Origin: Raillietiella orientalis
Lineage: Eukaryota
Length of the DNA: 64,000 bases
Direction: 5' to 3'
Assembly (NCBI GenBank): GCA_036172245.1
Contig: JAYWIR010000029.1
Span: 930,001 to 994,000 of the forward strand
The first letter of the stretch is position 1, and each line of letters begins with the position of its first letter. A model generated the notes under the pieces. It was given only the letters and a program-made list of their open reading frames with translations. It had not been told where the DNA came from and made no database searches. The position numbers and the translations under genes are program-made. Below are positions 14,880 to 43,200 of the stretch, in pieces.

Positions 14880-15420
14880 GCTATGGAAAGAGGAAGCTGC
14901 AGGTCCTCTTTCCTTTTTTTTTTCTCTGAGTTTTTTCCAGAAAGCATCCCAGCAAATCTCTCCAGCACAGCTTCTCCCAGAAGCACGAAGCTCTCGAGTT
15001 GAATCCCGCCCGAAGGCGACAGACATCCTCTGTCCCATCTCATCTCCAATGGTCCAGTCCAGGCGAGTGCTAACCTCATCTGGGGCCAAGCCACCTTCTT
15101 CAGGAGTCTCGAGTTTTTCCTTCTGGCTGCCCAGGGGAGTCGCTACCGACTGTCCCTAAGAACCGCAGCTGATCACACTCTCAGTAGTGAAGCCGACAGA
15201 AGGGAAGGTGTGAATCTCCTTCCCTCTCCCCAGAGTGGTTTAGGAGGCTGGCAACGGTCCGACCCACGCGATGGAACTGCTCCTCTGCCCGTCATCTTTG
15301 CAATCTCCTTCGCCTGGTGGAACAAGTAGAGCAGACCGAACGGATAGTAGAATCCTGTAGTTCGCTGGCTGCTTTCCCACGTTTTTCTGGCTTCTTCTTT
15401 CTTTTCCAAATCTCCAGGTA
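14880..15420 (-). mobile_element. Highly degenerate LINE reverse-transcriptase remnant
   Basis: Minus-strand KQPANYRILLS (compare PxNYRPISLL), EQF..R.GR, and LDWTIGDEMGQRMSVAFGRDSTRELRASG (compare LxWIxxxLxxRxQxV....S....GVPQG). Confidence 0.4.
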
Positions 15421-18400: not shown

Positions 18401-18586
18401 TCATCTTTAGATATCATAGGCTTTCTGAATAACCAAACCATCCTCTAGTCTCCCAAGAAGCTAGTAGTGCAACCATCTTGATGTAGGCAAGATGGGGATT
18501 CTAGGAGGACTTACCTATGCCAAGGGGTCCCTTGAAATTTCGCGCTCACTTCTGCACAGATTGCACGTGATGACGGACGGCGCAGG

Positions 18587-18909
18587 CCACTTCAAACTCG
18601 TGCACCTGGTCACAGCTTTCGTGCCTACTGAAGCAGCGGAGGGCTTGGCTAGTTATCCGGAAAGCAACGGGCGCATCGCTGTCTGCTCCTTTCAGCTGGT
18701 GATGGTCGTGTGCTTGTCGTAGTTGGCCAGTCGGGAGCTTCTGCTGCGTTGCGCTCGAAGACGTCGTTCATAAAACTGTTCACCGCCGACACGGCCTTGC
18801 TGGAGATAACTGCACCCGGATGCACCTGCTTCGAGACCTTATAGATGTAGACGACATAACTCTCGTTGCTCTTAGGCTTCTTCTTCGACAGCTTCTTCTT
18901 GTCCCTCAT
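18587..18909 (-). pseudogene. His2B: Histone H2B pseudogene (isolated orphon)
   Basis: [43 protein letters not shown], then a frameshift to (R)[43 protein letters not shown]. Two in-frame stops and a truncated N-terminus. Confidence 0.9.
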
Positions 18910-20159
18910 CAATCGGAAAGAAGAGTTTGAAGCTACTCCTTGCACGTTCCTTGAGATCGGATGCATTGGAAAAGAGTTGACACATCTCCATGTCCACAGA
19001 GGTTACAAAGACCGGAAATCGGAATTCTTCCAGACCGGAAATAGCCTCTTACCAGCCATCCAGCATATGAAAGCTGCAGTGGACTGACTTCCTCGGTTCC
19101 GCGTCTGTTACTGCGTCCCTGGCTTCTCGTTTCGTCCTGTTGCGCCTCTGCAAAGTGATCAAAAGATGTTTGCACGAAACGCCCTCCTGTTGAGAGAGAG
19201 AAAAAAACGGATGGTTGCAAGGATGAGAAAACTGCTTATTGGATCTCGGAAAATTCTTCGTAGGTTCGAAATGAGCTCTACCGCAAGTTTCCCTGGATGA
19301 GCAGGGCAACTAAGCTATGGTTCCGACTGAGTTTTTGGAAACCTCGCGAGACCCAGACAGGGGATGCGATGCTGACCTCCGCCTGTTACCTCGTCCACCC
19401 TTCCCCTTCACTAGACTGCGATTCCTCACCACTCATCCTTAAATCCACTGCCGCCACTACCTTCTTCACCCTTTCTTCCCCGTCTTCCCTCGCGGTGCAC
19501 ACTCGACGTGATCAGATCTCACCCTCCAGCATCATTGCGCATCTCATGGAAAGACTAGAGCGAAACGCAAAGCGTCTATGTACTTTCAGCACTGAAGCCC
19601 TCGAGGTGCCGTAGGTTTACGGAGGACAACCTGAGAAGTGTGCTTTCCGAGATCATCAGTCCGAGAACTTCTCTTTTTTTCGAGTTCTTCAGCGAAAGAA
19701 CTCGAAAAAATTATCTCAGTTCTTCGGTATTGATGTCAGAGACTGTTCTGCAAGCGTGTCAAATTTCCTCCTGCCGTTCGATCGGCTGCGTTCCAGCTTC
19801 CCTTTCCTTGTGAACGAACCCTCCCTCGGCAGCAGACCTTTCCCGAGGATTGAGAAGGAAAGTGGTAGAAAGCATTGATCTCTGAGGAAGAAGAAATCGC
19901 TCCTTTCTCGGATGGAGGCGATCATCTCTTGCAGCATCGGGCAGGGAAATTTCCGCAAGGGAACTCGGAGATCACAGGAATGGGGCTGCTCCCGGGAACA
20001 GGGATCGCCGAGGAACGGAAAGAAACAGAAATGATTCAATATTCCGACGAGACCGCACCGCGCCTGCTGAGAAGAGTTCGAAGACTTCCAGGATCTTCCC
20101 AGGAATCGGTAACAAGCAGGATTCAGGACAGATGGATGAGATCGTTTCCCTCTGCAGGT

Positions 20160-20820
20160 CCGTGCGTGGAGCCTAGCGTTGTGGGTTCGAATCCTGTTCG
20201 GAGGAAAGGTCGACTCCAGACAAATGGGTGCATCGTGGATTTCGAGTTTCCCCTGCAAGATGACCCTGGCTAGCTTACATTCAGGAGCGGCACTAGTAGC
20301 TGAAAATCCGTATGCCACCGATGAATGGCTGGGATTGGGAGTCGATCCTCCAGGGTCCTTCCAATAGTCACAATCAAGAAGTCGGTTCCCCTCCGTTCGT
20401 GAAAATGGAGCCTTCCCCTTCCCTTCCCTTCAAGGGGGGATCCTTTCCATCTCGTCCCATGAAGATGGTGGATGGATACCTCTCCAGAGTGTGAAGAGGC
20501 GCGCTGCTCCCTTCAGGGAGCGATCCTTCAGGGAAATTAGGGAGCTTCCCTCAGGGATTCTCTTCAGAAGAGGAGGAAACAAGGAACGGTTCCCTTGCGG
20601 GTTTCCTCCAGAAAAGAAAAAATGGAATGTGAGGTCCCTCTGGAGAGAATATGGAAGAGGTTCCCTTCAAGGATCCCTCCCCAGGAGTGAGAGGAACGGA
20701 CTCCCTTCTACGGAGCCATTTCTGAATTCATAGGGTGGCTTTCTCTAGGGTTCCCTTTATCTTGAAGAATTACACGCACCCTCGGGTGGCGTGGACAGTT
20801 TCAAAGAGCTTCGTGAGTCC
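20160..20820 (+). mobile_element. tRNA-headed SINE (copy C)
   Basis: Pol III B-box GGTTCGAATCC at 20184-20194. Shares body motifs GCGGCACTAGTAGC and GTGAGAGGAACGGACTCC, and the tail TATCTTGAAGAATTACACGCACCCTC, with other copies. Confidence 0.65.
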
Positions 20821-21967
20821 CCCTAAGAGGATGAACGGTTCCTCCAGCACTTAGCGGACCAAAAAAAAAAAAAGTTGGAAGGAGGTCGGTTGGAGTCTGA
20901 CCCGCGCAAGGTGGCACGGTTGGTGAGACTTCCCACCCTCTCTCTTCCATCGCTCTCTACCCCTTTCTTTCTTTCTTTTATTTTTTCAACCCCTCCGGCT
21001 CTTCTGGTGGGCCTCGAGTCAACTTTCCTTCCGCTGCTTCTCCGCCGCATTTCCCACCCTCCTTCCCGGTGCCCAGGCCGTGCTTCGGAATCCACGAGCC
21101 GCTTCCTCCCTTCGCTCCCGCTGGCGCCTCCACACGAAGCCACTCGCGCCCCTGCGAGGAGAGGAGGAACGAGGATCCCAACCCCAACGGGGATCGCCTC
21201 CTCCCGCCATTTTGATGCGCGCGAGGTTTCTTTCTCCTCCATTCGTCTTCCCACCCCGCCAGCTTCCCGTGGCAGGTGATTCTCATCCAGTTAATGGATT
21301 GGGTAGTCCGCGGGGACGCGACGCATCCAGAGTTCCGGGAGCTGCGGGTGGAATTCCGCCGCCGGAGTGCACGTGAGGGCGCGCCGAGCTACCAATCCGA
21401 CGAACCTGGTCCTGAACCGGGATTCCAGAATTCAGAGGAGGGCGCGGAGGGGGAAGAGAAGAGGCGGAGCGGCGCCAACCCATCCGGGACTCCATCTGCC
21501 CATCGGCTTTCAGTGCACTTCTGCATCTTGACCCATCACTGCACCTCCGCCACCCTTCCTTATCAACCCGCTCCTTTTCACTCTCCAGCATTCCCTTTGT
21601 CATCCGGCCGCTCGGCGGACGGCTGGCTGGGAGCCGAAGACGCTCTCCCCCGGCTCTTCCAGCTGCCCTTCCCTTCCTCCTCCAGCGTGACGAAGAGGAC
21701 GGTAGTGCCACGCCCAGCCCCTCGGAGGATGGTGGACCCCAGCGTTGGATGGTTGCCCCCGATCGCTCTCATCCCGTATCCCGCTTCAGAGTTCAGGTCA
21801 GCCATCTTGGAGACTTCCCGAACGAGCTGCAAGCTGCCGCCGGCCTTCGATCCTCCCCCCCCCCCCTCCCCTCAGGAAACCGCCGAGGAAGGGGAAGTAG
21901 GCGTTCTTTGGGCTCCTTCCATCTGTTCCTAGCGTTCGCCTCCCTGACTGACGAGGATCCCGTTCAG

Positions 21968-22655
21968 GAGTCCGCGTCGGAGTCCGTGTGGCTCCACCAT
22001 GCGTCGCAGGTTCGAATACTCCGAAATAAATCGACCAAGTGCGTCGAGGGTTCCAAGTTCCTCTCTCAAGATGGCGCTGGTTGGCCTCCATTCCTTCGGC
22101 TGCGGCACTAGTAGCGGTCCAAAGCGGATGCCCCCAAGGGCGAGTAGCTGAGACAAGGGGAGTCGACCTTCGGGTCCTTCCAGGAATCAAGGAGTGGGGA
22201 ATTCTCCCTCTGGTTGTGCAAAGGAGCGAACCTTCTATTCCGGGAGACCCTCCGCGTCGTACTGATGGAACAGGTGTGTTGCCACTTCTCCAGAGAGTGC
22301 GGAGAAGCGACCCGATCCCTTTGGGGAAGAAGCGCCCTTCTGAATTTCGAAAGTGTCCCTTCGGGGTTCTCTTCAGAGCAGTAAACAGGAGAGGTTTCCC
22401 TACAGGTTCCTTCCGGAAAATAAATTCCTAGCGGATCCTTTCCGGGTTCCCTCTGGAGAAAAAAACATGGAGAAGACCTTCCCGGGGTCCCTCCGGAGAG
22501 AACAAGGAAGGGGTAATTTCCTTCGGGGTTCCCCTTCGGAGACAACCAGGGTGGAGTGGTTTCCTCCGGGGATTCCTTTCCAGGCGTGAGAGGAACGGAC
22601 TCCGAACCCCTTTCTGGATTCATAGGGAAGACCCCTTTCGGGGTACCCTCTGTAT
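21968..22655 (+). mobile_element. tRNA-headed SINE (copy A)
   Basis: Head GAGTCCGCGTCGGAG and B-box GGTTCGAATAC at about 22009. Body is colinear with the copies at 20160, 31439 and (inverted) 22995. Confidence 0.7.
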
Positions 22656-22994
22656 GCATCCCTGAACCTGCCCCCTCGGTGAGGCGATGGATCCGGCCTG
22701 AGCATCCCCTCAGGCCGATCGTCTCCGTGCGTGACCAGTCCTCGTAAGGAGGAGCCGCTTCCCAGAGGCAAGACCCTCTGAGGATTGGCGGAGGGAATTC
22801 CTCCGGTTATTCCGAGAGCACAGAAGGAGGAACAAGAATGGCGGCGGAAGAGTCGGTCGCCCCAAGGTTCAATGACACAGTATCCTGTGCAAGATAACTC
22901 GATCCTGAAAGCTCTACAATTCCGACGAGAGTTCCTCACAAGGATTGCAGGACCCCTCAAGTTAGGGGATATCTCTAGAGAGAACCTCACACTC

Positions 22995-23600
22995 CCGAAC
23001 CACCCTGTGAATCCAGGAAGGGTTCCGGAGGAGTGAGTCCGTTCCTCTCTCTCTTGGAAGGGGACCCCGAAGGGAACCCCCCAACCCGGTTGTCTCCCAA
23101 GAGAGATCCCTTCCCCTTATTTTCTTAAGAGAACTCCCCGGTTTGTAAAGACCTTTTCAGGAGGAGCCCCCCCAAAAGAATTCGTTTCTGGTTTACCCTT
23201 CTGAAAGAGACCCCTAAGGGGAGCAGCACGCCTCTTAAAGACGCCCCGAGGGGGGTCAGTTCCATGGTACGCGATGGAGGGTCTCCTCCCCCCTCGAAGA
23301 AGGGAAGGGAGGGACGGCTCCATCTATACAACCGAAGGGGACCCCCGAAGGGCTGCTTCAGTTCTGGAAGGATCTCAGAGGGTCCGTTTCCAATCCCTGC
23401 CGGTAACAGAGGCGTCCACCAGCGCCACACTCGAATAGGCCAACCAGCGTCATCTTGCGGGGGGCACTCAAAACCCACGACGCTCCCCCTGTTCTCGGCG
23501 CCCGTCCCTTCTCCTCAAGTGGAATTCGAACCCGCAACTCAGGCCACCACCCGCCCTGAGGGGCCGACCACACAGAACGTACTGGACGCCGCCGGGCTTC
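22995..23600 (-). mobile_element. tRNA-headed SINE (copy D, inverted)
   Basis: Reverse complement has GGGTTCGAATTCC (23521-23533), CAAGATGACGCTGGTTGGCCT, GAGAGGAACGGACTC and GGATTCACAGGG. Confidence 0.65.
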
Positions 23601-26499
23601 CGTGGGACGATCCTGCTTCTCCCTCTGCCACGCAAACGTTCCGTGCTCGCCGTTGCGTGGCCGACCTGACCCGCGGGTCAGCCACAGCCAGAAAACCCGG
23701 CGCCGAGGCTCTCCACCGCCCGCTTTTCCTCTGCCCCTGCCGGCGCCCTCACTACCGCGCTCCCGGAGGGAGGAAAAGCTGTTGCACCTCCTCTCCGTTC
23801 TTCCGTGCGCGCACTGGCTGCCTGAGACACGGAAGCGGTTCTGAGCGCAGCTCGGGACCAAGGGCCGAAGCGTCCCGTGGGCACGACAGGTCACCCCCCA
23901 TATGCCCTCCGCCCGGGTTTTTTCCCTTCGAGGAACCCCCTGAGTTGCCTCATGCCCAGCGCTTCGCCTCGCATCTCCCGGAGGGATGATCTTCCGGACG
24001 CTCAGCTGGAACTCCGCAGGGTTCCTGCCGGCCGAGTGAGATCGCGCCGGCCTGCTCTCCCGTTCGCCTCTCGTCCGCGAAGGACCCGCTGGGAAAAAAA
24101 CGCATGCGGGGCACCCACTGAGGGCGTCCCGGAAAAAGAGGTGATCAGCACCAGACGCGCCCGGAAGCAATTGTTCCCTCTACGCTCCCGGTCTCTTCCT
24201 AGCGAGCCACTACTTCGCCGCCGTTATTCCACCTCTCGACCACGCGCTCCTGAGGGCAGGTCGCCTGGCAACCACGCTCTGCCCGACAGGACGGCAGATG
24301 ACAGCTCCTTCCTCTCTGCTCCTTCACCGAATGGAAGAAGGGAGGAGAGAGGGGAGGACAGGAGCATCTTGCGCAATCGTTTCCCCGTTCCGGGAGCAGC
24401 GGGAGCACTGAGCGGTCACCTTGGCAACCTCCTCTTTTACCCTCCTCTCGGACCGGCATCCCAGGAGGAAACGGCGGCCTTCTCCCTGGACGGGTTTTCC
24501 GGCATCCTCCCTGGTCTGGGTTTCCACAAATTGGCTGAAACGTAATTCCCGTGATCCCATCGAAATTTTCCGGAGTTCGAACCGCTGAAAGTGAAGGCGA
24601 AGCTTGTGTCTCGTCTCCCCGAAGTGGCAGGGACGCTTTAAAATTCAAAAGGAAAGTTCCTCTGTCGTTTCTATTTTCGAAGTGGTCAAACTTGCTGGCT
24701 TTCCGCGCCAGCAGCATCCGACATCTTCCCCTTAGACACCTCCTCCGGGATTGTCGCTGCCCGGTATGGTTCGTCTGCTACCCGGAAGAGGCCTCTCGCA
24801 GAGACCACCACTCCGGCGTGGATCCATCCCAGCTGCTGGACCTTGGAGCGCTCCTCCTCATCACTCTCCGAGTTCTAAAGCGGGAACAGGGTCTCAGGAC
24901 TCTCGGAGGATGCCTGTCCGGAGTGGACCGCCTCGCGCCGCAACTCGAGAGGCCGAAGAAATGCCGGGAAAAGGGAGCGGAGAGGAGGGAGGAGCAGCAG
25001 GGAAGTCGGCTCGTCTTCCACCCACCCTCTCCCTCCTTCTCCCAGGGACGAAGGAGACCCACAGCTCTCCTTGCTGCGAGGGCGGCGGTGCAGCCCAGAG
25101 AGAGGAGAGGAGGGCTTTCCTACCAGGGTTTTCCCCACCTCCCGTTTGCCGCTGCCCAGGAAAGACGGGAGGATCCCGTGCATGTAGCTCGCCGGGAGTT
25201 TCCAGGCGGCGAATGCAGGGAGGAGCCCAGACGAAAAGGATGAGGGAGGGGGAGGGAGGCGAGATCTTTCAGGAAGAGAGGGAATGCTGCACTTCCAGGT
25301 GTCGGGTTCTCCGCTAGGAGGGCTCCTCCCGCCCGGGGAGAGCTCGCCCAGAGATGGAAGAGGGCGTCCCCGCCATGTCTCCTGGAGGATGCCGTCCTTC
25401 TCGCTATTGCGCGTGCCCGGGGCGCCAAACCATTCGGGAGCTCCGACGCTCCCAATCCTCACAGAGTAGGTTTGCAAAGGGTCCGGCGAGAGGGAAGGTG
25501 CGAGGGGGGCGAGCGTCCTCCTGGACTGTTCGGGAGGGGGAAGAACCGGTTCGTTCCCAGGCCATTCTCGGCCGTTTCCTCGAAAGTCCGGACGACCAGC
25601 TCTGAGTCAGCGGGCGGACTTCCCTCCCTCCCGTGGGGGGCTCCACGCATCCTCCTTCGCTTCCTCGAGATGCGAGGGGAAGAGCGCACCCAGAAGACAG
25701 CGGGCACTCGCGCCCGCGCGGAGGGGGCGACCCGGAACGAGAGAGGAGCGGAGGACTCGGGAAGCGTTCCAACGGCTCCCCGCTCCTCCTCCTCCACAAT
25801 CGGGAAGGAAAGAAAGAGGAGACCGAAACAGTGCTTGAGTTCCCGGCCGGGGAGGGAGGCGTCCCGCCGGGAGCGGACGAGACCTCATTCCCTCCCCTCC
25901 CTCTCGTCTCTTTCTTTCTCCAGAGGTCTCGGAATTGTTGCTCGGGGAACCGCACGGTTTTGGGAGAGAGGGGGGAGGGGGAAGAGTGGGGGTGATCTCG
26001 AGTCCCCGGCGGTGAGGCGTGGCTCATCTGCAGACCCTGAGTCCTTCCCCTGCTCTCTCCTCTTCATCCCGCATGCTCTGTACTCGACTCCCAGCTGCGG
26101 TCCCCGCTTTCGATTCGTCCGTCACCTTCCTCTTTTCTCCCCTCCCCCCCCCCCCGCATCCCACTCGCGCGCATCCGGGTCAGGGGTCCCGGGATGGAGC
26201 ACGCGCCTTCTTCCTGGGCGTGCGTCACCCAACCCCTCCTCCCCCCATCCACCTCCTCCGCAGCGCAGGCTCGAGCGAGCGCTCCCGGCGCGGGTTCCCG
26301 CCCCGCCCCGCCCCGCCCCTCTCGGTGACGAAGGGCGGAGCGTTCCCGAGCGGGAAGCCAACGGGAGCGAGGGTGCGCGCGTCTCCGTCGCTCCCGGTCC
26401 TCCTGGGCGCTGCTGAGCGGCGGGGACGCTGGAGCTCCCACGGAGCGGGTGGCAGTCGCCGCTGGCGTACGGGAGAGCCGGGCCGCGCGTCCCACAGAG

Positions 26500-29356
26500 A
26501 TGGAGGTGAAGGGCGGCGGCAGCGCCTCTTTCCCTGAGGGCTTCTCGATTGACAGCATCCTGGCGAAGGGCAGGGCGCCCCGGGCAGACGCGGGGGAAAT
26601 CTCTTCCTCTTCTTCCTCCTCGTTGAAGACTGAGGTGGAGGAAGGAGATGGAGGCGAAGAAGAAGAAGAGGAAGAGGCCCGTCGACTGCTCCCCTTCCTG
26701 TCCCGGGACCCCTCCAGAAAGCGCGGGGAGCCCTCCCGGGAGGCCACGGCCCGCGGACAGTCTCGCTGCCGCTGCTGCGATGCAGAGGATGCCGTCACCA
26801 CGTCGACGTCAACGACGGCGGTGGACACCACGAACGGCAGCGACGGCGATGCCTCAGGTAGGTGGGAGAGGGCCGGGAGGGGGCCAGAGCGCAACCCTCG
26901 ACCCATCTTCTCGACGGGGGGACGGGGAGGGGCAGCCTCGTGGTATTCTCCCCTTTCTCTCCCCCTCCCTCGTGCTCCCTGAGAGGCCGCGCCACGGGCA
27001 ATCCCTGCCGGAACCCTAAGGAGAAACCCGAGAAATTCCTTCTCACTCACTGCCTCGGGCGGCCGCAGCGCGCGCGTGCGCGCACCCCTTCCTGGAGGAA
27101 AGGGAGAGGGAGGGAAGCAGAGGCAGACGGACCTGCCTTCCCGACTCTCCCGGGAAGTCCCACGAGGCCTCCTCTGGAGTCCTCCGGTCAAGAGCAGCAG
27201 GAGTCCGGAAGCAGCATTCCCTCTGGGAAAGAAAAGGGGCATACCGCAGCCTGGCCGGGGAGCTCGCCTGACTTACTCCTGGTCCAGCTATTCCGCGGCT
27301 GGAGAGAGGGGGAAATCCGTGGGCGCGACGTGAGGGAAGGCGAGCGGTCCATCCCGATGAGAAGGAGACTGTCATGCCTCCCGGCGCACGCTCTGGTCCA
27401 TGCGGGCGAGAGACGGTCCTCCCTTCCCCATCCGGTAGCGGAGGGTCCCTGGAGAGACGCGCCCCTTGTGAGATGGTTCCCACCTCCTAATCGCCTCCTT
27501 CTCCCGAGGACGTCCGAATGATGGCGGATGCTGCGCATCGAGGGCCCCGAGGAACGGGAGAGGTCTCTTATCCCGTTCCCGATGCGCGACCGACAGTGAG
27601 ATGTGGGAGCGCCGTCGTCCCTTGGAACCGCACCGGAAGGGCACACCCCCTAGGACTAGCCCCAGCTCTCCTTCACCTGTAGATGGACGTGGTCCCCCTC
27701 TTCCTGCACCTAGGGTCGCGTTCAAGACTCCCCAAGGTTTATCGCGCCCGACGCCCCGCCCCCTTTTCTTCTCTTAACGCGCGCTGATTGGTCGTCCCTT
27801 GAAGGCCCCAAGCATTCCTTTCGTCCTGCATGCCGGCCGGGTCGGAAAACTGGCCAAGTGGAGGTCACAATTACTCTGGTCCACGAAAGGCGGGATGCCA
27901 GTGCGCGCTGACAAGAGGGATCCTCCTTCATCTTTTCCTCTTTGTTTCTTCTTTCTCTTACCTTTCTTCTGTTCTTCCTCTCTTCCTCCATTTCTCCTCG
28001 CCTTCCTTCCTTTCTCTCTTCCTCCTCCTTTTCCTTTGCTCTTCATCCTTTTTCTCTTTAGGAAACGTCTTTCGAGATGACAGGGGTAGAACAGGGGCGA
28101 CAGCTCCCTTAACAGCAGCTTTAAGACGAGGGGCGTCCTGGTCATCTCTCTGCCGCTCTCACCTAGAAGGGAGGACATGGGGAGGGAAGATCCAAGGTGC
28201 CACCTCGGCTGGACTTCGAGGGGATGGCGGCGCGACCCTTAATGTCTTCCCCAGCGCGTGCGCGGCGGAAGCCCTCCGTACCCACCGGCTTCTCACTTTC
28301 CCTTCCCTCCTCCTTCGCAGACGCAGACTCCCTGCCGAACGAGGAGAGGAAGAAGCGTCCCAGGACCGCGTTCACCGCCTCGCAGATCAAGACCCTGGAG
28401 ACGGAGTTCGAGAGGAACAAGTACCTGAGCGTCTCCAAGAGGCTGCAGCTGTCCAAGTCGCTGAAGCTCACCGAAACGCAGGTCTCTCCCGGCCCCTGTG
28501 CGACGCGCCCCCTGACCGCAGCCTCCTCTCCAGATCAAGATTTGGTTCCAGAACAGGCGCACCAAGTGGAAGAGGAAATACACGAACGACCTGGAGGTCA
28601 TGGCTCAGAAATACTACACGTCCATTGGCATGCTGGTCCCCAGGCCCATGTGCATCGGAGACAGACTGTGGTAACCATCTGATTGCTTGTTACAGGGGGA
28701 GTTCGGGTCACCAGCTGGCCTTCGGCAAAGGGAGGATGGGGGGTGGTGGAATGAATGGGAAGGTTTTCGGCGCCCCAGGATCCGGAAAACACACGAAAAA
28801 AGCCCCAAAGCAGAAAAAAAGGGCGCGGGGAAGGCGGGAAGAGGGGGGAGGGGAGAGGGAGGACGAAACTCCGAGAAATGATCCGTGAGAATCTCGGTTA
28901 CCCGAGAACAGACTTCCCCCGCAGAAAGCATCCTCTGCACCTCAGCCCCCCTCTCGAAATCGGTTCGTCTTAGAAATTATTTCCTCCTCCTCGTCTCGAA
29001 AAATCCCGCGAGGAAACGATAGAATGTGAATAAGAAGACAAAGGGTCATCTGTAGCAGGCAGTGCGGCTCCGTGTACTCCGACTCTTTCTTTAGGCTGTT
29101 CAATCACGCAGCTCCTCCTCCTTCTACGCCGAGCTTCCACATCCACTCCACAGCCCCGCCTGAATGCCGCTCGTTGCCGAATCCGGTTACTCAGCTGCCG
29201 ACGAATTGCATCCCCAGTTACCACGTAACCCAGCAAAACCCTCCGTACTTCATGCAGACTTACGCCAACATGGGCAGCCCGTGCTCGTTGCCGCCGTGCC
29301 CTCTGCCATCTGTGATCTATTCTGAAAACTATGAGAAACTCCAGGCGATGCGTTGA
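26500..29356 (+). CDS. Nedx: Nedx / lateral muscles scarcer (lms)-family homeodomain transcription factor, 305 aa; exons 26500-26857, 28321-28481, 28534-28670, 29095-29356
   Basis: eh1 motif FSIDSIL in exon 1. Homeodomain RKKRPRTAFTASQIKTLETEFERNKYLSVSKRLQLSKSLKLTETQ|IKIWFQNRRTKWKRK. Family-typical C-terminal motif YTNDLEVMAQKYY...PRPMCIGDRLW|LF. GT-AG introns in phases 1, 0, 2 give 918 nt in frame. Confidence 0.9.
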
Positions 29357-29427: not shown

Positions 29428-29433
29428 AATAAA
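29428..29433 (+). promoter_or_regulatory. Candidate polyadenylation signal of Nedx
   Basis: AATAAA about 70 nt after the stop codon, followed by G/T-rich sequence. Confidence 0.55.
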
Positions 29434-30871
29434 CTGGAAGGTACTCTGTATTTTGGAGTATAGATGCATCATCTGCTGCCCAGTTCCATCGAGTGTTGAG
29501 AAATTATGCCGTGTACTTGTCAGCTATCTCCGACCTGAGTTTACTGCTCGGCCCGCAGCAACCTGCTTTTCTCTGCAAGAACAGTGGCTTCTCTTTCATC
29601 CTTCTGCAGCGTTCGCATCGTTCTGAGGATCTTCAATGGCCCGCAAAGCACGGAACCGCAGCCTCCAAGTTTACAAATTTGCGTGGAGCGAATTGAGATG
29701 GCAGACCTGCTTGCTAGATTTGCCTCGACTTTTGATCTAGGCTTCTCTTAGTGCCTGAATTTGCTTTCTTCGGATGGGAAAATGCCTTCAGGTTTCAAAA
29801 AATACACCAGCGAATCAGAAATTGTATATCGCAGCTAAATTTTTTGAAACAAGAAAAAGATCTTCCCTTGTCTTTTATCGTAAATAAGAAAACAAGAATC
29901 ATCACTCAGGAGATCATGTGGTGAATGAGCACTGCATCGAACTGGAGTACACCACCTTGCAAGCTGCACACCAGTTTTTAAATTTAAGTTAACCTATTTA
30001 AGCAATTTTCTGTAACGAGTTATCTGCTGTATCATGAACAATACATCTGTCTGCATAATGTTGTAGCACTCACCTCTGCATCACCTTCTGGAAAAGAGAA
30101 AGGTAAAGGGGGATAAAAGGGGCGGTGCAACTCCTCTCTGCGTTTAGTAGAAAGATTTGCATCTTCACTGATCAGTGGATGTCTTGAAGTTCCTTCAAGG
30201 TAGGAAGGAAAGCGCAAGTTAAGGTTTCCATACCATGAGCTTAAGTAACCTAAGGAGTAATCTAAAGTGAACTTTTCATACTATGTTTTCTTGAAGCAAA
30301 GGTGGAGGCTTCAGAATATGTCAGCATGTTCGGTCTCATAAACTAACAGTAGGAAAGTATTATGCAGATTTTGTACCTTTATTGTGTTGCGAAACGACGA
30401 GTCATTTGGAACGATGTACTCCGGGCTCATGATGACACTGCCACATATCTTTTCACTATGATTACAATTGCGTTGTCTGTACTCTTTTTGTTACTTCAAC
30501 CAAGACAAAGTTCAATTACCCATACCTTTCTGTCCAAAACTTTCAAGCAAAGAATGTGGACACTAATTACGTTCAAACATCCAAGTTTAGTGTCTTCTAT
30601 ACAGCAGAATACACTGAATCTTCGTCATCTTTGCTTCTGCATGGCAACATTTAGAAATTTTCATTTCTTTATGCTTGATTTTTTTTTTGACAACGAGTTT
30701 TATGTCAAAGGAAGAAGCTGAAACAATTCTACATCTTAAGTAGACTAGTTTTGCTTTTTACCACGAACAGTCAGATTTAAGATGTGTATATTAGAGGCTG
30801 AGCGGCTACAAGGTACAGCATTGACACCTGCCGACATATACCTAGACAGGGGATTCTTGAGCACACTTTTT

Positions 30872-31138
30872 CTCCTTCGCAGACGCAGACTCCCTGCCGA
30901 ACGAGGAGAGGAAGAAGCGCCCCAGGACCGCATTCACCGCTTCGCAGATCAAGACCATGGAGACGGAGTTCGAGAGGAACAAGTACCTGAGCGTCACCAA
31001 GAGGCTGCAGCTGTCCAAGCAGCTGAAGCTCACCGAAACGCAGGTCTCCTCCCGGCCCCTGTGCGACGCGCTCCCCGACCGCAGCCTCCTCTCCAGATCA
31101 AGATTTGGTTCCAGAACAGGCGCACCAAGTGCGCATAA
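30872..31138 (+). pseudogene. Nedx: Partial duplicate of the Nedx homeobox (acceptor, exon 2, intron, start of exon 3); pseudogene fragment or alternative terminal exons
   Basis: Matches 28310-28568 including the intron. Exon 2 has 7 substitutions in 161 nt and no indels. Splice sites AG|30883, GT 31044 and AG 31096 are retained. The spliced frame ends IKIWFQNRRTKCA*. Confidence 0.9.
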
Positions 31139-31146
31139 GCGCACGT

Positions 31147-31265
31147 CGCTGCCAGCTTTGGCAATACCCTTTTCCATGAGAGAACACAACGAAAAATTCT
31201 GTCCAGTACCTGATGATCCCCATTCATTCATAAGGCTCTTCATTGACAAAATCTCCCATTGCAAC
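31147..31265 (-). pseudogene. TopBP1: Partial duplicate of the TopBP1 last exon (BRCT7-8 linker)
   Basis: Matches 33575-33684 in the same genomic orientation, with about 6 substitutions and two 4-nt insertions. Encodes EWGSSGTGQNFSLCSLMEKGIAKA versus EWGSSGTEQNFSLCSPMEKSIAKA in the gene. Confidence 0.9.
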
Positions 31266-31438
31266 CAAATCGTTGCATGGACTTCGCATAGCGCTCATAA
31301 GCTCTTTACGTCGATTTCTTACCCAAAAAACAAATCATCTTTACTCAATGCCGTTGTCCAGCATCCCAGCACAAAGCCATTTTTCGAGAACGAGCTCGTT
31401 AAAGTTCGCGCGTTCTTTACTTTCCTTCACAATCCAAA

Positions 31439-32630
31439 GAGCCCGCGTCGGAGGCTTTGTGGTCAAGGCTTCCTCGTGTGGCACTATGCGTCGCGGGTTC
31501 GAATACTCCGACAGAAACTGACGCCACTGCGTCGTTGGGTTCAGGGTTTCTCCTGCAATGGCGCTGGTTGGCCTAATCATTCGGGCGTGGCACCGGAGGT
31601 GGATAAAGCCGGGAGGCCCCCGATGAAGGCCGGAACAATGGGAAATTGACCTTCGGGTCTTCCCAGGAATAAAGGAGTGGGGAGTTCCCCCTCCGGTCGT
31701 ACAACGGAGAGTGGACCCCCTCACTGGGGGACCTCTCCGGTTTCAAGATGGAGCAGGAGCCCTCACGGGCACCTCTCCAGTTGTTCAAAGGAGCGGACCC
31801 CACCTGTTGCGGGGGTCCCTCCGAGTCGTCGCCTCTTCACAGAGTGCAAGGAAGCAAGCGACAGCGATTCCTACATACCCCATAAACAGTAAATACTGAT
31901 CATACTTATCAATAGAACAAACAATAAAGTCCATTCCATTCCTCCCAACCTCATCAATGATCACTCTATTAACACTACCCTACTCCAACAAACAATCCAC
32001 AAACCCACACTCACAACCATCATCCTAACCAACACCACTATATAATTCAAAGCCAAATAACTACCTACGATACATACTAGAATAATAGATACAATAACTT
32101 ATTACTGCTGAAAAGTTTACTTGCAAAATTCAAGGTATTCCGAAAGTAAACCTTCAAATACAGCATTTTCAATATTTCCTAAAAAGTAGAAATAAACCTA
32201 AGAAAATAACATAATAAAGGATGTAAAACTGCGGGAAGCTGCAGCGCCCCTTCTGAGTTTCGGAAGCGTCCCTTCAAGGTTCTCTTCAGAGAAGTGAAGA
32301 GGAGCGGTTCCCTTGTGGGTTCCCTCCGGAGAAGGAATTCCTACTAGCGGATCCTCCGGGTTCCCTTCGGAGATGAAATAGAGAGGACCATTCCCCCTTG
32401 CGGGGGAGTCCCTCCGGAGAGAATGAGGAAGAAGATTCCCTTCGCAGACAACCAGGGTAGGAGGTACGATCCCTCCCTTCCTGGGTGGATCCCTCCTCAA
32501 GCGTGAGAGGAACGGACTCCGAGTCCTTCCTGGATTCATAGGGCGAACCCCCTTCCAGGGTGCCTCCTATCTTGAAGAATAACACGCACCCTCCGCGGGT
32601 GGTGTGGAACAGTGTTAAAGAGCCACGTGC
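31439..32630 (+). mobile_element. tRNA-headed SINE (copy B), split by a ~360-bp insertion at about 31872-32230
   Basis: Head GAGCCCGCGTCGGAG..TGTGGTCAAGGC..GGTTCGAATAC (31496-31506). Homology to copy A breaks at CGATTCCT and resumes at GCGGGAAG...GCGCCCCTTCTG. The tail is shared with copy C. Confidence 0.7.
31870..32105 (-). pseudogene. nad5: Probable NUMT: mitochondrial nad5 5' fragment
   Basis: Extreme C/A skew and G-poor on the + strand. Under the invertebrate mitochondrial code the minus strand reads ..GLWIVCWSSVVLMEWSLMSLGGMEWTLLFVLLMSMISIYC.. (TGA read as Trp), resembling the ND5 N-terminus. Confidence 0.55.
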
Positions 32631-33213
32631 GCCGCGAGGTACTCGTAGGGTCGCTACTGGTCTTTTTTTAAAAAAAAAAAAACTGCATGCACTATGGAGG
32701 CCCCCAAAGATGCCACCCGAACCCCAGTTCCTGAGGTACTTTTATTACTAGGTGCCAAAGCATTTTTTTGCTTCTTTTCCATTACAGGTATCGGATGCCA
32801 AGTGCGACTACTCAACTACCGAAATCAACGACAGCGGAAGCATTAACACGTAACGAAGTGTATTAGTCAGATTCTAATGAAACGTTCTGGGGCTAACAAT
32901 ATCTGAAGGGCCGATAGATTTCTTTTTAATGGCTTCTGTCTTGTGGATAGGGTCTCTCTTAATAGTCTGCACTTTTTACGTGCTTCTTCGTTTTGGGGAT
33001 GGCGCGGCATCACGCTGTCAGTTGTCATTCGGAAATAAAAAATATGTATATCGTTCAAACTTGCCAAATAAATGTTATAAAGAAAAAAATATTTTGATAT
33101 TCTACACAGGAAATTTACACGAGATCGGGAAAATGGTCCTGAAGATCTGATGGAATCAGCAAGAACTTCCTTCCTCAAATGTGATCTGTCGAAATTTTCG
33201 TGAAATTTGCAAA

Positions 33214-36200
33214 TCATGGAACTGGATTGCTGCTCTTTTTTATGAGGGCTAGGTAAGAAGGCTGCATATATTTGAGGGCATCAGGAGGATCTTCATTAAG
33301 GAGGAAATCACTTAAGTACATGGTGTTTAAGCACATCACTTTGAACTGGGCCAAGACTTCCAAATTCAGTCCGTTGATGCCTACTTTCGAGTCATAAAAT
33401 AGGTGCGTGATAGGGGCAGAATTCGAAGGGAGAGAATAAACTATAGTGGCTCCCCCGGCCTCAAGGAGTCTCTGGATCGACTCAGTCTTATCAGACCGGT
33501 TCAAATGCAAATGCACTGTCATATGAGCAAAGGCACCTTTCTTGGTTTCAAGACACTTTAAGTGCCAACGATGTGCTGCCTTGGCAATGCTCTTTTCCAT
33601 GGGAGAACACAACGAAAAATTCTGTTCAGTACCTGATGATCCCCATTCATAAGGATCTTCCTTGACAAAATCTCCCATTGCAACACAGGCATCCACATAT
33701 TGTGGAACAAGCACCCATCGCCCTGCAGCAATGCAAGATAAAGTTTTTTCATTGCGGGACGGCCTAGAAGTCAGTAAATGGGTAACAGAGCTCTCATAGT
33801 GACTGCTGGCACAAAAGTTGGCCCCAAGCTGACGGAGCAAATACATGCAGTGTTCCCGTTCCTGAAGAAAAGCTTATATAACTTTACATATTAAGTTTAT
33901 TACCTCCTCTGTACTCATGCCTGAAACGGCAAACTGACGGCAAACCACAGATCCATTCTCACCACATGATACCCGCTGTAACTCAAGATCTCGAACTGGA
34001 TCATGCCAAGTAATTGGATATGCTGGAGATTCTTCTGGTTGTGTTTCTGCAAGGACAAAAATATCTTGCAATCTTGCAATTAAGCTACACCTACCAGATT
34101 CAGACTGAGATTCAGGAATTGGATGCTGATATGTTTGAACAACAGGGCTACTTTTAGATGTATTCTTATCCTTCCTAAGTGCTGAACGACGAGTAGCATC
34201 AAGCAGAGCTTCCAGTTCATGGCTCACACCATTAGATGCACAAGATAGAGGGGTCATAACAGTATCTTCGTCACAGCGCTCTGGTGTGCAATTTGCTGAA
34301 GGATGAAAGTCCGGATTACTTGTTAAGGGGGAAGATTCCGAAATTATTCGGGCACGCTTGGGAGTGCGGATGCTACCAACATTCAGGCACTGTTTGGAAT
34401 TGTAAGGAGGAGGAAAGGCATCCTCAGCTGGCTTAACACCAGTGCGCTGACATTCCCAGATCCAGTCAGGAGAAACAAGAAAGACATTATCTTGACGTGC
34501 CTTCTGCAGCACTTTAGCAGTGGAATGTGCTCGGCAGACAACATGGGTGACACCATTTCCGTATTGTACCATTAAAGTTGCTCCCAGCTCTTGGAGAACT
34601 GATGCTGCTTTCTCCTGCTTTTCTTTATCTCTAGGTAGATAAATAAATACATTTGTTCCTCTCAAAGGGTAGCTGCATTTAACCTCCCTCTGATGAATTT
34701 CATGTTGCCAATCGTTTTGGGATTTCTTGTAGATTTCATGGAGAGGCTACAGACCATAAGTTGACTGTATAACTTTTATTCCTTACCGTCTCTTTGGATC
34801 GGAACAAATGATAGCGGTCTGCAGGCTGGTCATCTAAGAGAGCTAGCTGAAGCTTTCTTGTAAGAGGAGAAGGACTTTTTAAAGATGTGGGATCAAATGC
34901 TCCATATGGAGTCTCGGGAGTGCGCATTTCTCGCACTTTCTTATAAACACTTGCAGGGAAAGAATCAAGCTTTTGAACAGTTTCAGAGGAAGACTGAACA
35001 TCTCGGGGCTCTAGACTTTGAGGGGTAGAAAAACCAGACTCCTTTGAGCAAGTATTCTCTATCACATTAGGAATATCATCTCCACCTCCAACAAAAAACA
35101 TTCTCTCTAATACACAAGTCTTTTGCTTGAGACATTCTAGCAACCATTCTTTCTTCAAGGTTGGTAAGCCCCAGCTACGAGCAGCTGCAAATTTTTGTCC
35201 AGAAGCAGTAGCACAAACAAGATGTGTAGCAGCTACTAAGCCCTCATTAGGATCTGTTCGTTTGGACATCATTTCCATATAGCTAGTCACATGCTGTTTT
35301 GCATCCTTGGCAAGGCAAACTTACTGTGCACCCAGAAGTTGGACAGTCCGCATAAGAAACATCCGCTCTGGTCCTTGGAATCCTGTGAGCACCACACAGC
35401 AACCAGTCAAACATTTGTAACTGCCTTCCTCACGTGGTAGGGGAAAATGATAATATGCTGCTGACACTAGACTTCCAGTTAACAAGCAATTATCCTGGAG
35501 ATGACATGGTATGAGGAAAGGAAATAACAAAATCAAACTTACCACCCAGGAAACATTGACAACATGGTGTGCCCTAGGTAATTCAAGAGGAACACGAGTA
35601 GAAATAAGGTAGTCAACACATTGATGTTTTTGGCTTGCTTCATTCAAGACAGTGCCACCATGTTCTTCCAACAAGTCAGTCAGAACATCTTCAGGCACTG
35701 CTTCTTCATGAATTTCCCCAATACGAAATGTCAAACCTATGATTTATTTCTGTTGCAATGAAGTTCGAAATTTGACCATACCATCAAATAAATGGATAGT
35801 AGAATGGGCAGTATACTGTTGCAACAACTCATCATCAGCATAAGTGATGCTCTCATCATCTCTAGAAACAGCTGGGCAAGGCAACTGAGTCTTCTGAATC
35901 TTAGGGATCACAGTATTTTCTGAAGATTGTGAATGGCAAAGAAACAATTCTTCATCCACAGGTGTTTTTGCATGACAGCACTGTAAAAGCCACTTCACAT
36001 TCACCACATGAGCTCTTCAATATTCTGTTAAACTCAGAAAAGCCTTTAAATTACAAACCGATTGCACATCTCTTTGGGGAAATCCGCCATCTGTCCAGGA
36101 ACCAAAATATGGGTGACACTATCACAGAACATGCGATACCAAGTAGCACCACTGACATTTAGCAATCGCCTGAGACGCTCTTGAACATTTTTTGAGAAAC

Positions 36201-37652
36201 CATGCAAATATACATGGCAACCATCCAAAAAATGACCATGACGAGCTACTTCATGTGGATCTAACTTCTCAAGTTCTGCAGCTGTAAGTAAAAAATATAT
36301 CATTAAAGCTGGCATTTGGACAAATAACACACCCAATAAATCCGGAATTACTTCTGTCATGTTCAACTCATTAATTAATGTTTCTTGGATGGGTCCATGA
36401 CCTTCAGATTCACTTAGGATGGCACTCATGGCTGTAACATCTAAAGGAGCATTGTTTAGGAGAGAATTCCTGGGTGTGGAATTCTGATGGTGAACTTGAG
36501 CTTGCACTACATAGGGCTCCTCCTCCAACAGGTAGCCATTAGTTTCAGATTCCAGAATCCATTCGGGACGAAGACAGGAGATACCCCAACGACAAGCTGC
36601 CTTATATTTGTCTCCCACCGCCTCAGGAAGTAACAAATGCGTTGTTTCATGTTGCACCAATTGGCCACTATAGGTACCACCTAAAAGCAACATGTAACAA
36701 GTACTGAACAATTTCCACAGACCATTTTTCTCAATGATTTGCTGTAATCGCTGTTTAAATCGACGTCCCATTTGACTGGCTGTGATGACCAGTGATCGAA
36801 AAATAGGGAAAACATACTGGGCAAATTGAGGATCTGTTGCATGCACATTGCAACACTGACTTTTTTCCCACACAGCGTGCATCCACTCCAATGACATTAC
36901 AGGAACTTGCTGCTTTACTGCTACCTGTCATGGTCACAATTAAGGCACTGAATTTGTTTAAACCAACCTGATATTTCTGAGAAATAGGACTGGCTGCTAT
37001 TAAATGGGTGATATGTCCATGGAATGCATTCAAATAAGCACCAGACATCAGTGTTACCTTGTCCTGAATGTCACGCTACAAAACCACTTGAATTAATGAA
37101 TTAATCATATAATTTAACCTTGGTAGCAGCATCAAAACCAGTAGAAGTTATGATAAGCTGATTCATCGATACTGAATAAATAGGATACGGTGTATGCGGT
37201 ATAGGTATTTCTTTTTCTAAACATGCTAATATACAGCGTGGCCCTAAAACACTTCATTAAAGGTAATAACATTTGATAAATTCTATATACTTACACACAA
37301 CGATCCAAATTTCCATTCCGAGACATGCACAATTTGGAAACACGTCTAAATGCTTCTCCATCAAACGGATCAAAGACAAACACATCTTGACGAGATGGAA
37401 AATATGCTAAGCACTGCTGCTCAGTCATCCATTTAGGATTAAGGCCATGTTTTTCACAGAACTATTAATCCATGTACTAATAATGTTCATATGACTCACT
37501 TCAAAGGCAATTCGTAGATCATCACTTGTTTTCTCTTGCTGGACTTGCAAAGGAAGCACAAAATGAAGGCGTATTTTTCCTTTGGCTTGACAACTATTTG
37601 TGCTCAGCATCAAGGAATCTGCTGTAAAGTTTGCCTGACTTTCTGTCTCCAT
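33214..37652 (-). CDS. TopBP1: DNA topoisomerase II-binding protein 1 (TopBP1/Dpb11/Rad4/mus101), multi-BRCT scaffold, 1289 aa, 14 exons
   Basis: Exons 37652-37500, 37461-37295, 37251-37119, 37075-36968, 36924-36723, 36680-36333, 36281-36059, 36014-35782, 35736-35543, 35494-35325, 35282-34787, 34746-34095, 34046-33904 and 33861-33214 total 3870 nt in frame. Repeated BRCT motifs (THLI, THLL, THIL, THLV, THVV, each with a downstream W..C), ATR-activation-like ITWHDP, and C-terminal RNEKTLSCIAAGRWVL..Y....D.YEWG. Confidence 0.93.
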
Positions 37653-40247: not shown

Positions 40248-43200
40248 CTAGTATGAAGAGGACCACCTCAGTGGAAGAATAATCGACCAATACAAGATAT
40301 TAAATATAAGAAAGCCTAGAGGAAAGAATATACGGCTCTTCTGATCTATCCATTTGGAGATTTGCTGTGGTGTCATGGTTGTGAATTGATTGGCAACTGA
40401 AAAAGAATTTCGGTTCTCATGAAGGGATTCAGCTTTCATGGGGACGTTGATCTCGATGGAGTGGCAGCCGTTGTCTGGGTTTACGAAAAGACTGTTTACG
40501 CTCGTAACTGATTCATAACAGTCCTTGCGTACATTGGGATTCGAGAAGTCGCCGTGATCCTGTACGTCAGAGTGTTCCTTTGACTTCCACTGAAAGTAAT
40601 GTATGCAAGCAAACTAGAAAGCGTACTTACCAAGGACGTAAGTCTGCGTATATCGGATGTACTGCGACACCTCTTCCCTTCTAACGACGTGAAACTTTGA
40701 ATAGGGGAGCTATCTCCGGATATGATATGAGGGAATGACATATCTCGCCTACTGGAACGTGGTGTAACACTTGATTTGAGGATGTACTTGGCATTAGGTT
40801 TTTTGAGAATAACTTCTTTCCTAAATAAGTTTGATAATCCATTTTTACTATTCTGTCGTTCATTAAGATCATTATCACAGAAACATCATCGCAACCTATA
40901 CGGTCTCCCAGTCTCGATGGTCATTCATTTTCTCATATTAAGAAATTGTTTCTCATATATTATTGTTTTAGTTTCTGATAATAAGGTGACTGAAATATGG
41001 CAAGATCAAGTGGTGATAAAGAAAACAGAGCCGAAAGCATGGATAATTTTAAGACTTTTGATTTATGCTACTCCAATACTGACCAATTATGATTCACATG
41101 GTCTTCTAATAAGTGGCATGATTTGCTGTTGGATTTTGGATAGGTGGACAGAATAAGTAGAAAAAACTCATCCGTAATAGCATCCGAACAAAAATTTGAA
41201 CATCTTCAGCAACATTTTTCAACTAAGGGAATTTTTTTCTTGAATTTTAGGAATTCTTTGGATTCGATGAGCAATAAATGTGTAATTGTACAAAATTTAT
41301 GTATATATATGTGTGTGCACTTTGTTAGCGAGCTCGCGCATGTGTTTGTCTGTAGACTTATGAGTGCACATATAAACATATAAGGTGTATGAGGGCGTGA
41401 GCGTATTGTGAATTGCCAAATGTATCATAACATTAACCCCCCAGAAATTCCTGAAGCGGATTTCTTTGTTCAATGCAATTTCTCATATCATCTCATGCTC
41501 GGGTAGTTAAGAGTACGATGCTTTTGGCTCTGTTACGGGGAAGTACTGCTCCAGTGGCAACTATTTATGCAGCCGCAGGAAGATGCTGCAAGTGAAGGTT
41601 TTCACTCCTATTCTTCCTTTCTGAGAACTGGTGAAAGCTTGCCGTCCTTCCAAAGATACCAACGAAAGACGTCAGTATTCAGACATCCCAAGAGCTATTG
41701 ATCAACAAAGACGAGACTGCTCTCCCATAATAGGTTTTGTGTGTATGGAAAGATAAGCCTCAAAGCATCACTTGAAGAACCCTCAAAATTGCAAGTGACA
41801 AAGATGGCCTAAACGTTGTTCTTCAAACGGAGAAAAGAGGCTCAAGAGATCGAGGAAAACGCGAAATTCCTGTTCCTGCAACACTTCAAGCCTCGAACCA
41901 GTGCTTGGAAAGACTCAACATCTCCTTCTCCGCTTAGATACGAGGACTCAAGGAAGTAGGCAGTTGACTTTTTTCAAAGCCTCATACCCCTGTGAGCTTG
42001 CCCAAAAGGTATAAACAGGAAAGCAAAGGATTTTGTCAGAAGGTTGGATGATGAAAATTAGCGGCTCCAAAGGAGTCAGATTGTCACTTTACTTTTCACA
42101 AAACTATGGGCTTCTCCCTGTTTTCATTCTTGTTGTTGTTGTTGCTATTATTATTCTCCATGTACATTTCACGTGCTGAGCCATAAGAATATGCCAAAGG
42201 GATGGGACAATCCTGCAGATTGCCTCTCCAATGAATTATATTTATGAGCTCTGGACTCCAAGCTAGAAACATTCCTATCATGCTGAGTATGTCATACAGA
42301 AGAGAGCAAGACCGCGGAAAAACGAGCCACAACTTTTTCTTTCTGTGATTGCATCTTTTTCTTTTTGTTTCTTTTTTTTGTGTGTGTTTTGAGGCATCCT
42401 GTCTCTTTGCACGTACCTTCTATGATAAATGATGTTTACGAATGCGAATTCCGCCAGGGATAGGAAAATGAAAGCAGTGCACACAAAAAACCAGATTTCT
42501 AAAGCCGTGATATACGACACTCTCGGGATCACATTGTCAGTATTCCTCGTTAGCGTGATAAACGTCAGTAGTGTGCTGGTTCCTGAAACGACACACATAA
42601 ATCCTCATTTTCAGGAGCGGATAGTACCAACATGAGCTGCTGGGGGGACAAAGTGTAGGTGGACGCTCCACGAGGAAAAGAGAGAGAGAAAGAGGAGGAG
42701 GAAAAGAAGAGAGTAGCGAAAAAAGGGAGCTAAGGGAGTTCTTCTTTTTTTTCAAATTTTTTTTTCTTTTCCTCGGGTTCATGGAGGGCAGAAGAGGACT
42801 CCAAGGCAGCAGAAGAACGTCACCGAGGAAAGGTGGAAAGGCGATATCCTCCGGAGGTCTCTAGACAAGAAAGCAAAAAAAAAAAAAAAAATAGATTTCT
42901 TTTTCTTTTTTTATCTCTCCTCTGTATCATCAAAACCCCTCCGGACGTAGCAGAAATGCACTTCCTCCTTGCAGGAACGTGACTTTTTGTTCCCTTTCTG
43001 TCTGCTTCCAAATCCGAAACAGCAAGAAACATTAAGAACAAGGAAGTTCCTCTAGGTATTTTGTGATGCGCTGTCGCGTGGGGCCTTCATCTTCACGCCG
43101 CAGGCACATTGTTTTGCTTCTGTCATAGCAATTGCAAGAAGGGACTCGCCCAGGGATTAGCCTGCGATCAAATAAATGGCTCTCAGAAATGAAAGTTCAC

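Follow-up and report, generated by a model that had tools for sequence, protein, structure and literature searches.

A chimeric cassette copied from both neighbouring genes lies in the spacer between a Nedx-type homeobox gene and TopBP1

Introduction

How does the spacer between two convergent genes come to hold a short stretch of DNA that is assembled from one piece of each neighbour? This question is raised by a cassette of 394 nt that lies between a homeobox gene on the left and the gene encoding TopBP1 on the right. We studied it within the window, by which we mean the whole 64-kb stretch of DNA that was analysed. An original prediction, made by reading the letters alone, had described the cassette as a homeobox copy fused to a TopBP1 exon copy. 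Here we follow the cassette from its pieces to its donors, its joints, its surroundings and its divergence, and weigh the ways in which it could have arisen.

Results

The cassette holds one piece of each neighbour

When the window was compared to itself by BLAST, the left part of the cassette, A' (30872-31131, plus strand), was found to be a direct repeat of donor A at 28310-28568, with 96.2% identity over 260 columns (E 9e-119). A separate repeat search agreed, and this is the copy that had been proposed. For the right part, B', the proposal had paired 31147-31265 with 33575-33684. This similarity was found as well, with a BLAST core of 31155-31265 (B') against 33578-33684 (B) on the same strand (90.1% identity over 111 columns, E 1e-33). 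In a gapped alignment that included the flanks, the wider limits of 31147-31265 and 33575-33684 add the word GCTGCC and a 4-nt insertion. Counted from a short word shared with the central joint, donor B spans 33560-33684 on the plus strand. The gapped alignment also places all four pieces on one strand in the order A..A'B'..B, so that both copies keep their original orientation, as had been claimed, and the similarity of A with A' and of B with B' ends abruptly at all four outer limits. No further copies of either piece were found in a self-comparison of the 64-kb window. Both donors are still in place, showing that the pieces were copied and not moved. The similarity to two donors is real and far beyond chance.

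Donor A reaches from 11 nt before the end of intron 1 of the homeobox gene through exon 2 and a 52-nt intron to a point 35 nt into exon 3. A' likewise includes no less than 11 nt of terminal intron-1 sequence, followed by the whole of exon 2, the complete next intron and 35 nt of exon 3. The retention of this intron had been pointed out before and is clear from the alignment; in A it spans 28482-28533 (52 nt) and in A' 31044-31096 (53 nt), with GT..AG ends in both. The frame of A' is open and ends in ...IKIWFQNRRTKCA, followed by a stop codon that is contributed by the joint. B' copies part of the last TopBP1 exon, lies antisense to TopBP1 and is out of frame through a 4-nt TCAT duplication.

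A stop-free frame of 262 codons (30861-31646, plus strand) runs through A', the joint, the antisense B' and the spacer, and its database matches are confined to the homeodomain part. In the comparison of this 262-aa ORF with proteins, only ordinary homeobox proteins were retrieved. The matches with a longer coverage (P0121, P0048, P0123, P0124 and P0030) turned out to be short-intron read-throughs of the Nedx genes of other organisms and not counterparts of the cassette.

The two donor genes

The left donor gene (26329-28674, plus strand) has a Pfam Homeodomain match with an E value of 1e-13. Exon 1 lies within an ORF at 26329-26979, and exon 2 (about 28321-28481) encodes homeodomain positions 1-44. 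Exon 2 is followed by the intron of 52 nt at 28482-28533 and by the coding part of exon 3 (28534-28674, stop codon 28672-28674), which encodes the remainder of the homeodomain and a short tail. Among named proteins, the closest relatives are arthropod proteins annotated as 'ceh-19-like/BarH-like' and 'lateral muscles scarcer', automatic names that are inconsistent with each other. The C-terminal tail past the homeodomain matches that of the lms protein P0165. Nedx, CG13424 and lms are reported to be the same gene, which belongs to a family lost from vertebrates (PMC2982225, PMC3002276); the DNA studied here is accordingly probably that of a non-vertebrate animal. The Pfam match, the lms relatives and the match of the tail to P0165 support the predicted assignment of the left donor as a Nedx/lms gene of the NK-like homeobox type.

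We also compared Nedx exon 2 with metagenome contigs and found 26 loci, the best of which has 83% amino-acid identity. At none of the 26 did we find similarity to TopBP1 or the exon in a second copy. These loci are too distant to be used for dating the cassette. Among the metagenome loci L001-L003 and L007-L011, some have a short intron (a gap of ~59-210 nt) at homeodomain positions 44/45 and some have none.

The right donor gene is encoded on the minus strand (33214-37652, ATG at 37652, stop codon 33214-33216). Its last exon, 33214-33861, wholly contains donor B. Pfam BRCT hits, including BRCT_TopB1_SLF1, are collinear from 36927 down to 33217, and the last ORF matches the TopBP1 BRCT7/8 structure in PDB entry 7cmz with an E value of 7e-34. 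In addition, six homologues found in a library-wide HMMER search are collinear by tblastn over 37607-33232. Judged from this homology and domain order, the right gene is TopBP1. Donor B is real exon sequence, as the splicing model below shows, and the term 'TopBP1 exon copy' used in the original prediction is correct. No match was found when the last exon was compared with longer proteins, and no relative was found among metagenome contigs.

Several introns of TopBP1 are either in frame or stop-bearing, and the gene at first resembles an intronless pseudogene. We considered whether it is a processed pseudogene with in-frame stops and frame shifts, and rejected this, as every break corresponds to a GT..AG micro-intron. 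More precisely, the frame breaks coincide with GTAAGT...YAG introns of ~38-43 nt. Splicing these out yields a stop-free model of 1315 aa that aligns end-to-end with the 1445-aa homologue P0173 (E 3e-139). The model is the least-cost path through GT..AG introns, and some of the introns on this path are probably not true ones. The Nedx intron is likewise tiny, with 52 nt. Further to the right, exons of a Cys-loop neurotransmitter-gated ion channel were found on the minus strand (40251-46532; Neur_chan_LBD and Neur_chan_memb); their introns are of kilobase size, unlike the micro-introns of TopBP1.

Joints and edges of the cassette

The central joint covers 31127-31154. It opens with the word AAGTG(C) at 31127-31132, which is followed by 16 nt (31132-31147) that align poorly to B. 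The word AAGTG terminates donor A (28564-28568), and AAGTGC is found both at 31127 in the joint and at 33560, where it sits 15 nt ahead of clear B homology. From the word frequencies of the window, the chance of meeting AAGTGC within 40 nt is 0.9% and that of AAGTG 4.6%. At the left edge, CACTTT is found 10 nt ahead of A (28294) and 2 nt ahead of A' (30864), with a chance of 1.7% within 40 nt. The search windows for all of these estimates were chosen after seeing the data. If CACTTT is counted together with the polypyrimidine tract, which is 8 nt shorter in A', donor A possibly begins at 28294 and A' at 30864.

The original prediction had placed about 15 nt of filler between the two pieces. 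A poorly aligning stretch is indeed present, but it may in part be diverged B sequence that begins at the AAGTG microhomology. The 16 nt of the joint correspond to 10 nt in B and hold the nested words GCGCAC-caa-GTGCGC-ataa-GCGCAC. As single-stranded DNA the joint is predicted to fold with -10.5 kcal/mol (z -2.1), and 5 of 200 shuffles folded equally well. This predicted fold, only modestly above shuffles, is suggestive of snap-back priming and hints at no more than that. A template for the filler in the right flank (CGCATA-GCGC, 31285-31294) was considered and dismissed as not significant: 428 of 3000 shuffles matched equally well, as did 729 of at most 3000 random 16-mers from the window.

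Across the central joint the donor coordinate rises, from 28568 to about 33560, which makes it a joint of the deletion type. Such a joint is not the product of a tandem duplication. A tandem or segmental duplication is expected to give the order A B' A' B with a high-to-low junction, whereas the order found is A A' B' B with a low-to-high junction; on this point the original prediction holds. Splicing as the source of the joint was rejected too. We inspected the sequences on both strands and found no GT..AG reading, which means that the joint was not made by splicing of a read-through RNA.

A deletion-type joint could also be the last of several steps, and an internally deleted copy of the locus put back into itself was the second option of the original prediction. 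A copy of the ~5-kb stretch from A to B could have been inserted inside itself, or two tandem duplications could have come to abut, and the interior would later have been deleted between AAGTG words. The central joint that is seen is precisely what a deletion between direct AAGTG repeats should leave. However, two or three independent events with common breakpoints would be needed, no remnant of the interior of the inner copy was found in the window, and the 16 garbled nucleotides would stay unexplained. The position of the cassette at the midpoint between its donors, described below, is explained no better by such a series than by a single step. We therefore regard a multi-step origin as quite improbable.

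No marks of a mobile element were found at the outer edges. No poly(A) was found at the end of the cassette, which reads ...TTGCAAC, and no target-site duplication (TSD) was found at its edges; the word that follows the A13 tract of the neighbouring repeat described below does not recur just left of the cassette. Inverted repeats of at least 40 nt are absent from the interval 26-38 kb, and a scan for short repeats over 30600-31600 gave no pair with arms at both cassette edges. The 12-nt inverted pair I5 (31102-31113 and 31260-31271, 92%) has one arm that crosses the right edge, but the pair does not enclose the cassette. In the surrounding sequence, searches for Rfam families, tRNAs and tandem repeats produced no relevant match. 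LINE-mediated retro-insertion, giving a class 1 templated sequence insertion polymorphism (TSIP) or a processed copy, should show a TSD of at least 5 bp, a poly(A) tail and a spliced template. It was rejected, as there is neither a TSD nor a poly(A) tail and the introns are retained.

The same edges bear on the capture of gene fragments by a DNA transposon of the Pack-MULE, CACTA or Helitron type whose ends were later lost. Such capture typically yields chimeras of gene fragments that still hold introns, and the cassette is a chimera of this kind. Its edges, however, have neither terminal inverted repeats nor a TSD. Helitron ends read TC...CTRR, whereas the cassette starts with CT and ends with AAC. 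Nor does capture predict that the donors are the immediate neighbours, with order and orientation unchanged. Transposon capture is accordingly a highly improbable origin.

Surroundings of the cassette and a possible RNA template

Between the Nedx stop codon and the cassette there is only one AATAAA signal (29428-29433, plus strand), and only one lies between the TopBP1 stop codon and the cassette (32741-32746, minus strand). They likely mark the ends of the 3' UTRs of Nedx and TopBP1, respectively. With these as the sole signals, ~1.4 kb separate the cassette, centrally placed in the spacer, from either likely 3' end. It is probably inert, lying this far from both signals and with B' out of frame, and neither gene is evidently affected by it.

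To the right of the cassette, at a distance of 173 nt, lies a retroposon-like repeat (copy 1, 31439-32682, plus strand) that ends in A13. Two other copies are found at 21968-22650 and 20537-20873, with 71-75% identity, and an A13 end is present on copies 1 and 3, that is, on two of the three. A candidate TSD of the repeat, the 10-nt word TGCATG[G/C]ACT at 31274 and 32684 with one mismatch, is not significant, with a rough chance estimate of ~20%. Copy 1 holds an extra A/C-rich insert of 420 nt (31830-32247). It also contains GGTTCGAAT at 31497, which we take to be a tRNA B-box-like word; ARAGORN found no tRNA in this copy.

An alternative is that the cassette is a patch templated by RNA. Reverse transcriptase would have copied an unspliced plus-strand read-through transcript of Nedx, which would hold A and, downstream of it, the antisense of the last TopBP1 exon, and jumped within it at AAGTG. 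The cDNA would either have sealed a break, as a class-2 TSIP, or have been attached 5' of the neighbouring retroposon while that element integrated. Several observations fit this scenario. Both pieces share the polarity and order of one plus-strand transcript, and template jumps at short microhomology with a few extra nucleotides would give a joint like the one seen. The poly(A)-tailed repeat lies 173 nt to the right, or only 8-18 nt if the weak TSD is real. The lack of TSD and poly(A) is not foreign to this route either, since class-2 TSIPs are described as having neither and as showing microhomology (PMC5110952).

Other features of the locus point away from RNA. As A' includes the end of intron 1 and the whole intron of 52 nt in A and 53 nt in the copy, an RNA template would have to be fully unspliced. 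For B' to be included, transcription would need to run on for 4 kb after the likely Nedx poly(A) signal (29428), and neither strand of the AAGTG joint can be read as GT..AG. A TSD that brackets cassette and repeat together was not found. Furthermore, cassette and repeat are not contiguous, as the 173 nt in between (31266-31438) match neither a retroposon copy nor any other part of the window. Finally, the copies of the repeat differ by 25-29%, which suggests that the repeat is older than the cassette. Taken together, an RNA template is unlikely, but deserves to be kept in mind. The intron sequence at the left edge of A' and the complete intron make genomic DNA the simplest template. The earlier conclusion that the copy was DNA-templated is the more probable one, although the retained intron would also fit an unspliced RNA.

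Elsewhere in the window, a 19-kb block at 10000-29000 has 51-70% G+C and many long spurious ORFs, and ends at the Nedx gene; the G+C content of the remaining window is 28-58%. A weak histone-fold match (E 4e-6) was found at 18652-19002 on the minus strand. Two direct copies of 41 nt (50644-50684 and 54818-54858) are 95% identical and presumably resemble the 3' part of 5S rRNA (GGATGGGAGACC..GGGTGCTGTAGAC); an Rfam search with these copies gave nothing at the gathering score. There are also two pairs of inverted repeats, one at 12516-12865 and 14106-14457 (~350 nt, 83% identity) and one at 4896-5150 and 5462-5717 (~255 nt, 86% identity), which may be foldback or terminal-inverted-repeat elements.

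Divergence of the copies

A and A' differ by 9 substitutions and a 1-nt indel, and B and B' by 7 substitutions and the 4-nt TCAT duplication in B'. In the coding part of A', three changes are synonymous and four nucleotides alter three residues. A divergence of roughly 5% in both pieces had been claimed. The substitution rates are in fact unequal, 3.5% (9/259) for A/A' and 6.5% (7/107) for B/B', but this difference is not significant (Fisher p=0.26). Equal dates for the two pieces thus fit the data, and a single event, as originally predicted, is compatible with the divergence although not proved by it.

The aligned cores together contain 16 substitutions, of which 11 are transitions and 5 transversions, and only 2 indels. 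A ratio of 11:5 is an evolutionary pattern and not one of sequencing errors. Moreover, at two of the three residues changed in A', six other Nedx proteins side with A, which identifies A' as the drifting copy. Both the substitution pattern and the departures of A' from conserved residues indicate a drifting copy and not an artefact of read errors.

An artefact of assembly is a different matter. Another haplotype or a paralogous locus with a 4.6-kb deletion could have been misplaced into the contig. Divergence of 3.5-6.5% between alleles is plausible for very heterozygous invertebrates and would suit this explanation, and the exact midpoint position could hint at an artefact of alignment or consensus. 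On the other hand, the window contains no N, and the homology stops at 260 and ~120 nt instead of running for a read length. A haplotype with such a deletion would have a truncated homeodomain and truncated TopBP1 BRCT7/8. We also know of no assembler behaviour that puts a deletion joint mid-way into the undeleted allele. Misassembly is consequently as improbable in our eyes as the series of steps considered above.

The cassette lies at the midpoint between its donors

The end of A is 2303 nt from the cassette. The distance from the cassette to B is 2294 nt if B is counted from AAGTG, 2309 nt from the limit given in the original prediction, and 2312 nt from the BLAST limit. This puts the insertion point 3-4.5 nt off the centre of the 4.6 kb that separate the donors, in line with the earlier description 'almost midway'. 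Under uniform placement in this interval, P is 0.15-0.22%, a post hoc value that presumes that the 1.2-1.4-kb repeat was already there; later indels would blur the statistic. Were the repeat younger than the cassette, the gap on the right would originally have measured about 884 nt and there would be no symmetry. A comparison of the two halves of the spacer at word size 7, as would reveal a decayed palindrome, showed no similarity.

The midpoint position is not predicted by one-step repair alone. One could view it as the fossil of a symmetric two-sided process and not as chance, a view that we hold to be rather far-fetched. Two resection fronts or sister forks would leave 30871/31266 at equal speed, or, alternatively, two repair syntheses would converge from the donor edges. 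At each front a short single-stranded or unwound template would be copied, giving the pieces of 260 and ~120 nt, and both run-off products would then be joined at AAGTG. Lengths of 260 and ~120 nt are in the size range of Okazaki fragments or unwound 5' flaps. If so, a germline insertion would preserve the positions of both fronts at a single moment. Should midpoint placement recur at other loci, it would speak for a symmetric intermediate of a kind not specified in current models.

Discussion

A model for the origin of the cassette

The explanation that we favour, and consider reasonably probable, is that the cassette arose in a single event, a patch insertion of the TMEJ, SD-MMEJ or MMBIR kind that was primed by microhomology and templated by DNA. 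It would start from a chromosome break or a released nascent strand at 30871/31266. One 3' end would prime ~2.56 kb back on its own side and copy 28310-28568, giving A', while the other 3' end would prime ~2.42 kb off, again on its own side, and copy from ~33684 back to 33560, giving B'. Error-prone synthesis would then link both newly made ends at the 5-nt word AAGTG and leave ~16 garbled nucleotides. Equivalently, a single nascent strand could have made three template switches, back by 2.6 kb, forward by 5 kb and back by 2.4 kb. In either form the template would be duplex or sister DNA, because copying of the opposite single-stranded tail would give the order B'A'.

The sharp edges, the retained donors, the deletion-type joint and the AAGTG word argue for a locally templated insertion, the first option of the original prediction, whereas the mechanism behind it, including the break itself, the polymerase at work, how many steps were taken and a single date for both pieces, is what we infer from these traces in one sequence.

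The locus would offer a clean natural case, from the assembly of an animal genome, in which the repair of a break filled the spacer between two genes with long pieces of both, introns included. Such repair would be a route by which exon fragments are duplicated and juxtaposed without transposons; here the fragment includes most of a homeobox with an open frame.

Comparison with known systems

In C. elegans, iterative abortive priming by polymerase theta is reported to give patchwork templated insertions whose stretches come from the flanks of the break (PMC8654963). The cassette resembles the TMEJ and SD-MMEJ inserts described there in its near-break template, several patches, microhomology at the joint, garbled nucleotides and donors that are kept. 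It differs in scale, since its patches of 260 and ~120 nt come from 2.3-2.6 kb away, whereas the cases in the cited report map to the immediate flanks (PMC8654963). A second difference from TMEJ and SD-MMEJ is that each end of the cassette was copied from its own side in direct orientation, for which a duplex or sister template is needed.

In MMBIR and FoSTeS, serial switches at microhomology lead to small templated insertions from nearby sequence. These usually accompany a larger copy-number change or rearrangement, whereas at this locus the net change is the 394-nt insert only. Templated insertions at rearrangement breakpoints have been linked to MMBIR (PMC8421209, PMC5120786).

Filler DNA produced by SDSA-type repair arises by ectopic strand invasion and synthesis, and in rice such fillers are reported to measure 1-123 bp with a mean of 13 bp (PMC4423477). 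As in these plant fillers, segments from elsewhere were copied into what would be a repaired break. The rice fillers of that report are, however, tied to transposon excision, while here the host is an animal and no excised element is evident; unlike them, the cassette also has two symmetrically placed donors.

Human class-2 TSIPs are described as patches that seal breaks and lack a TSD or poly(A), with microhomology and untemplated nucleotides (PMC5110952). The cassette shares the absence of TSD and poly(A) as well as the microhomology and the extra nucleotides at the joint. The TSIP donors in that report are distant, often on other chromosomes, and thought to be RNA-derived, in contrast to the cassette, whose donors are at most 2.6 kb off and carry intron sequence.

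On the favoured reading, the cassette would be a fresh example of an already described class of repair scar, with tracts that are longer, and donors that lie farther away, than in the templated inserts of the reports cited here.
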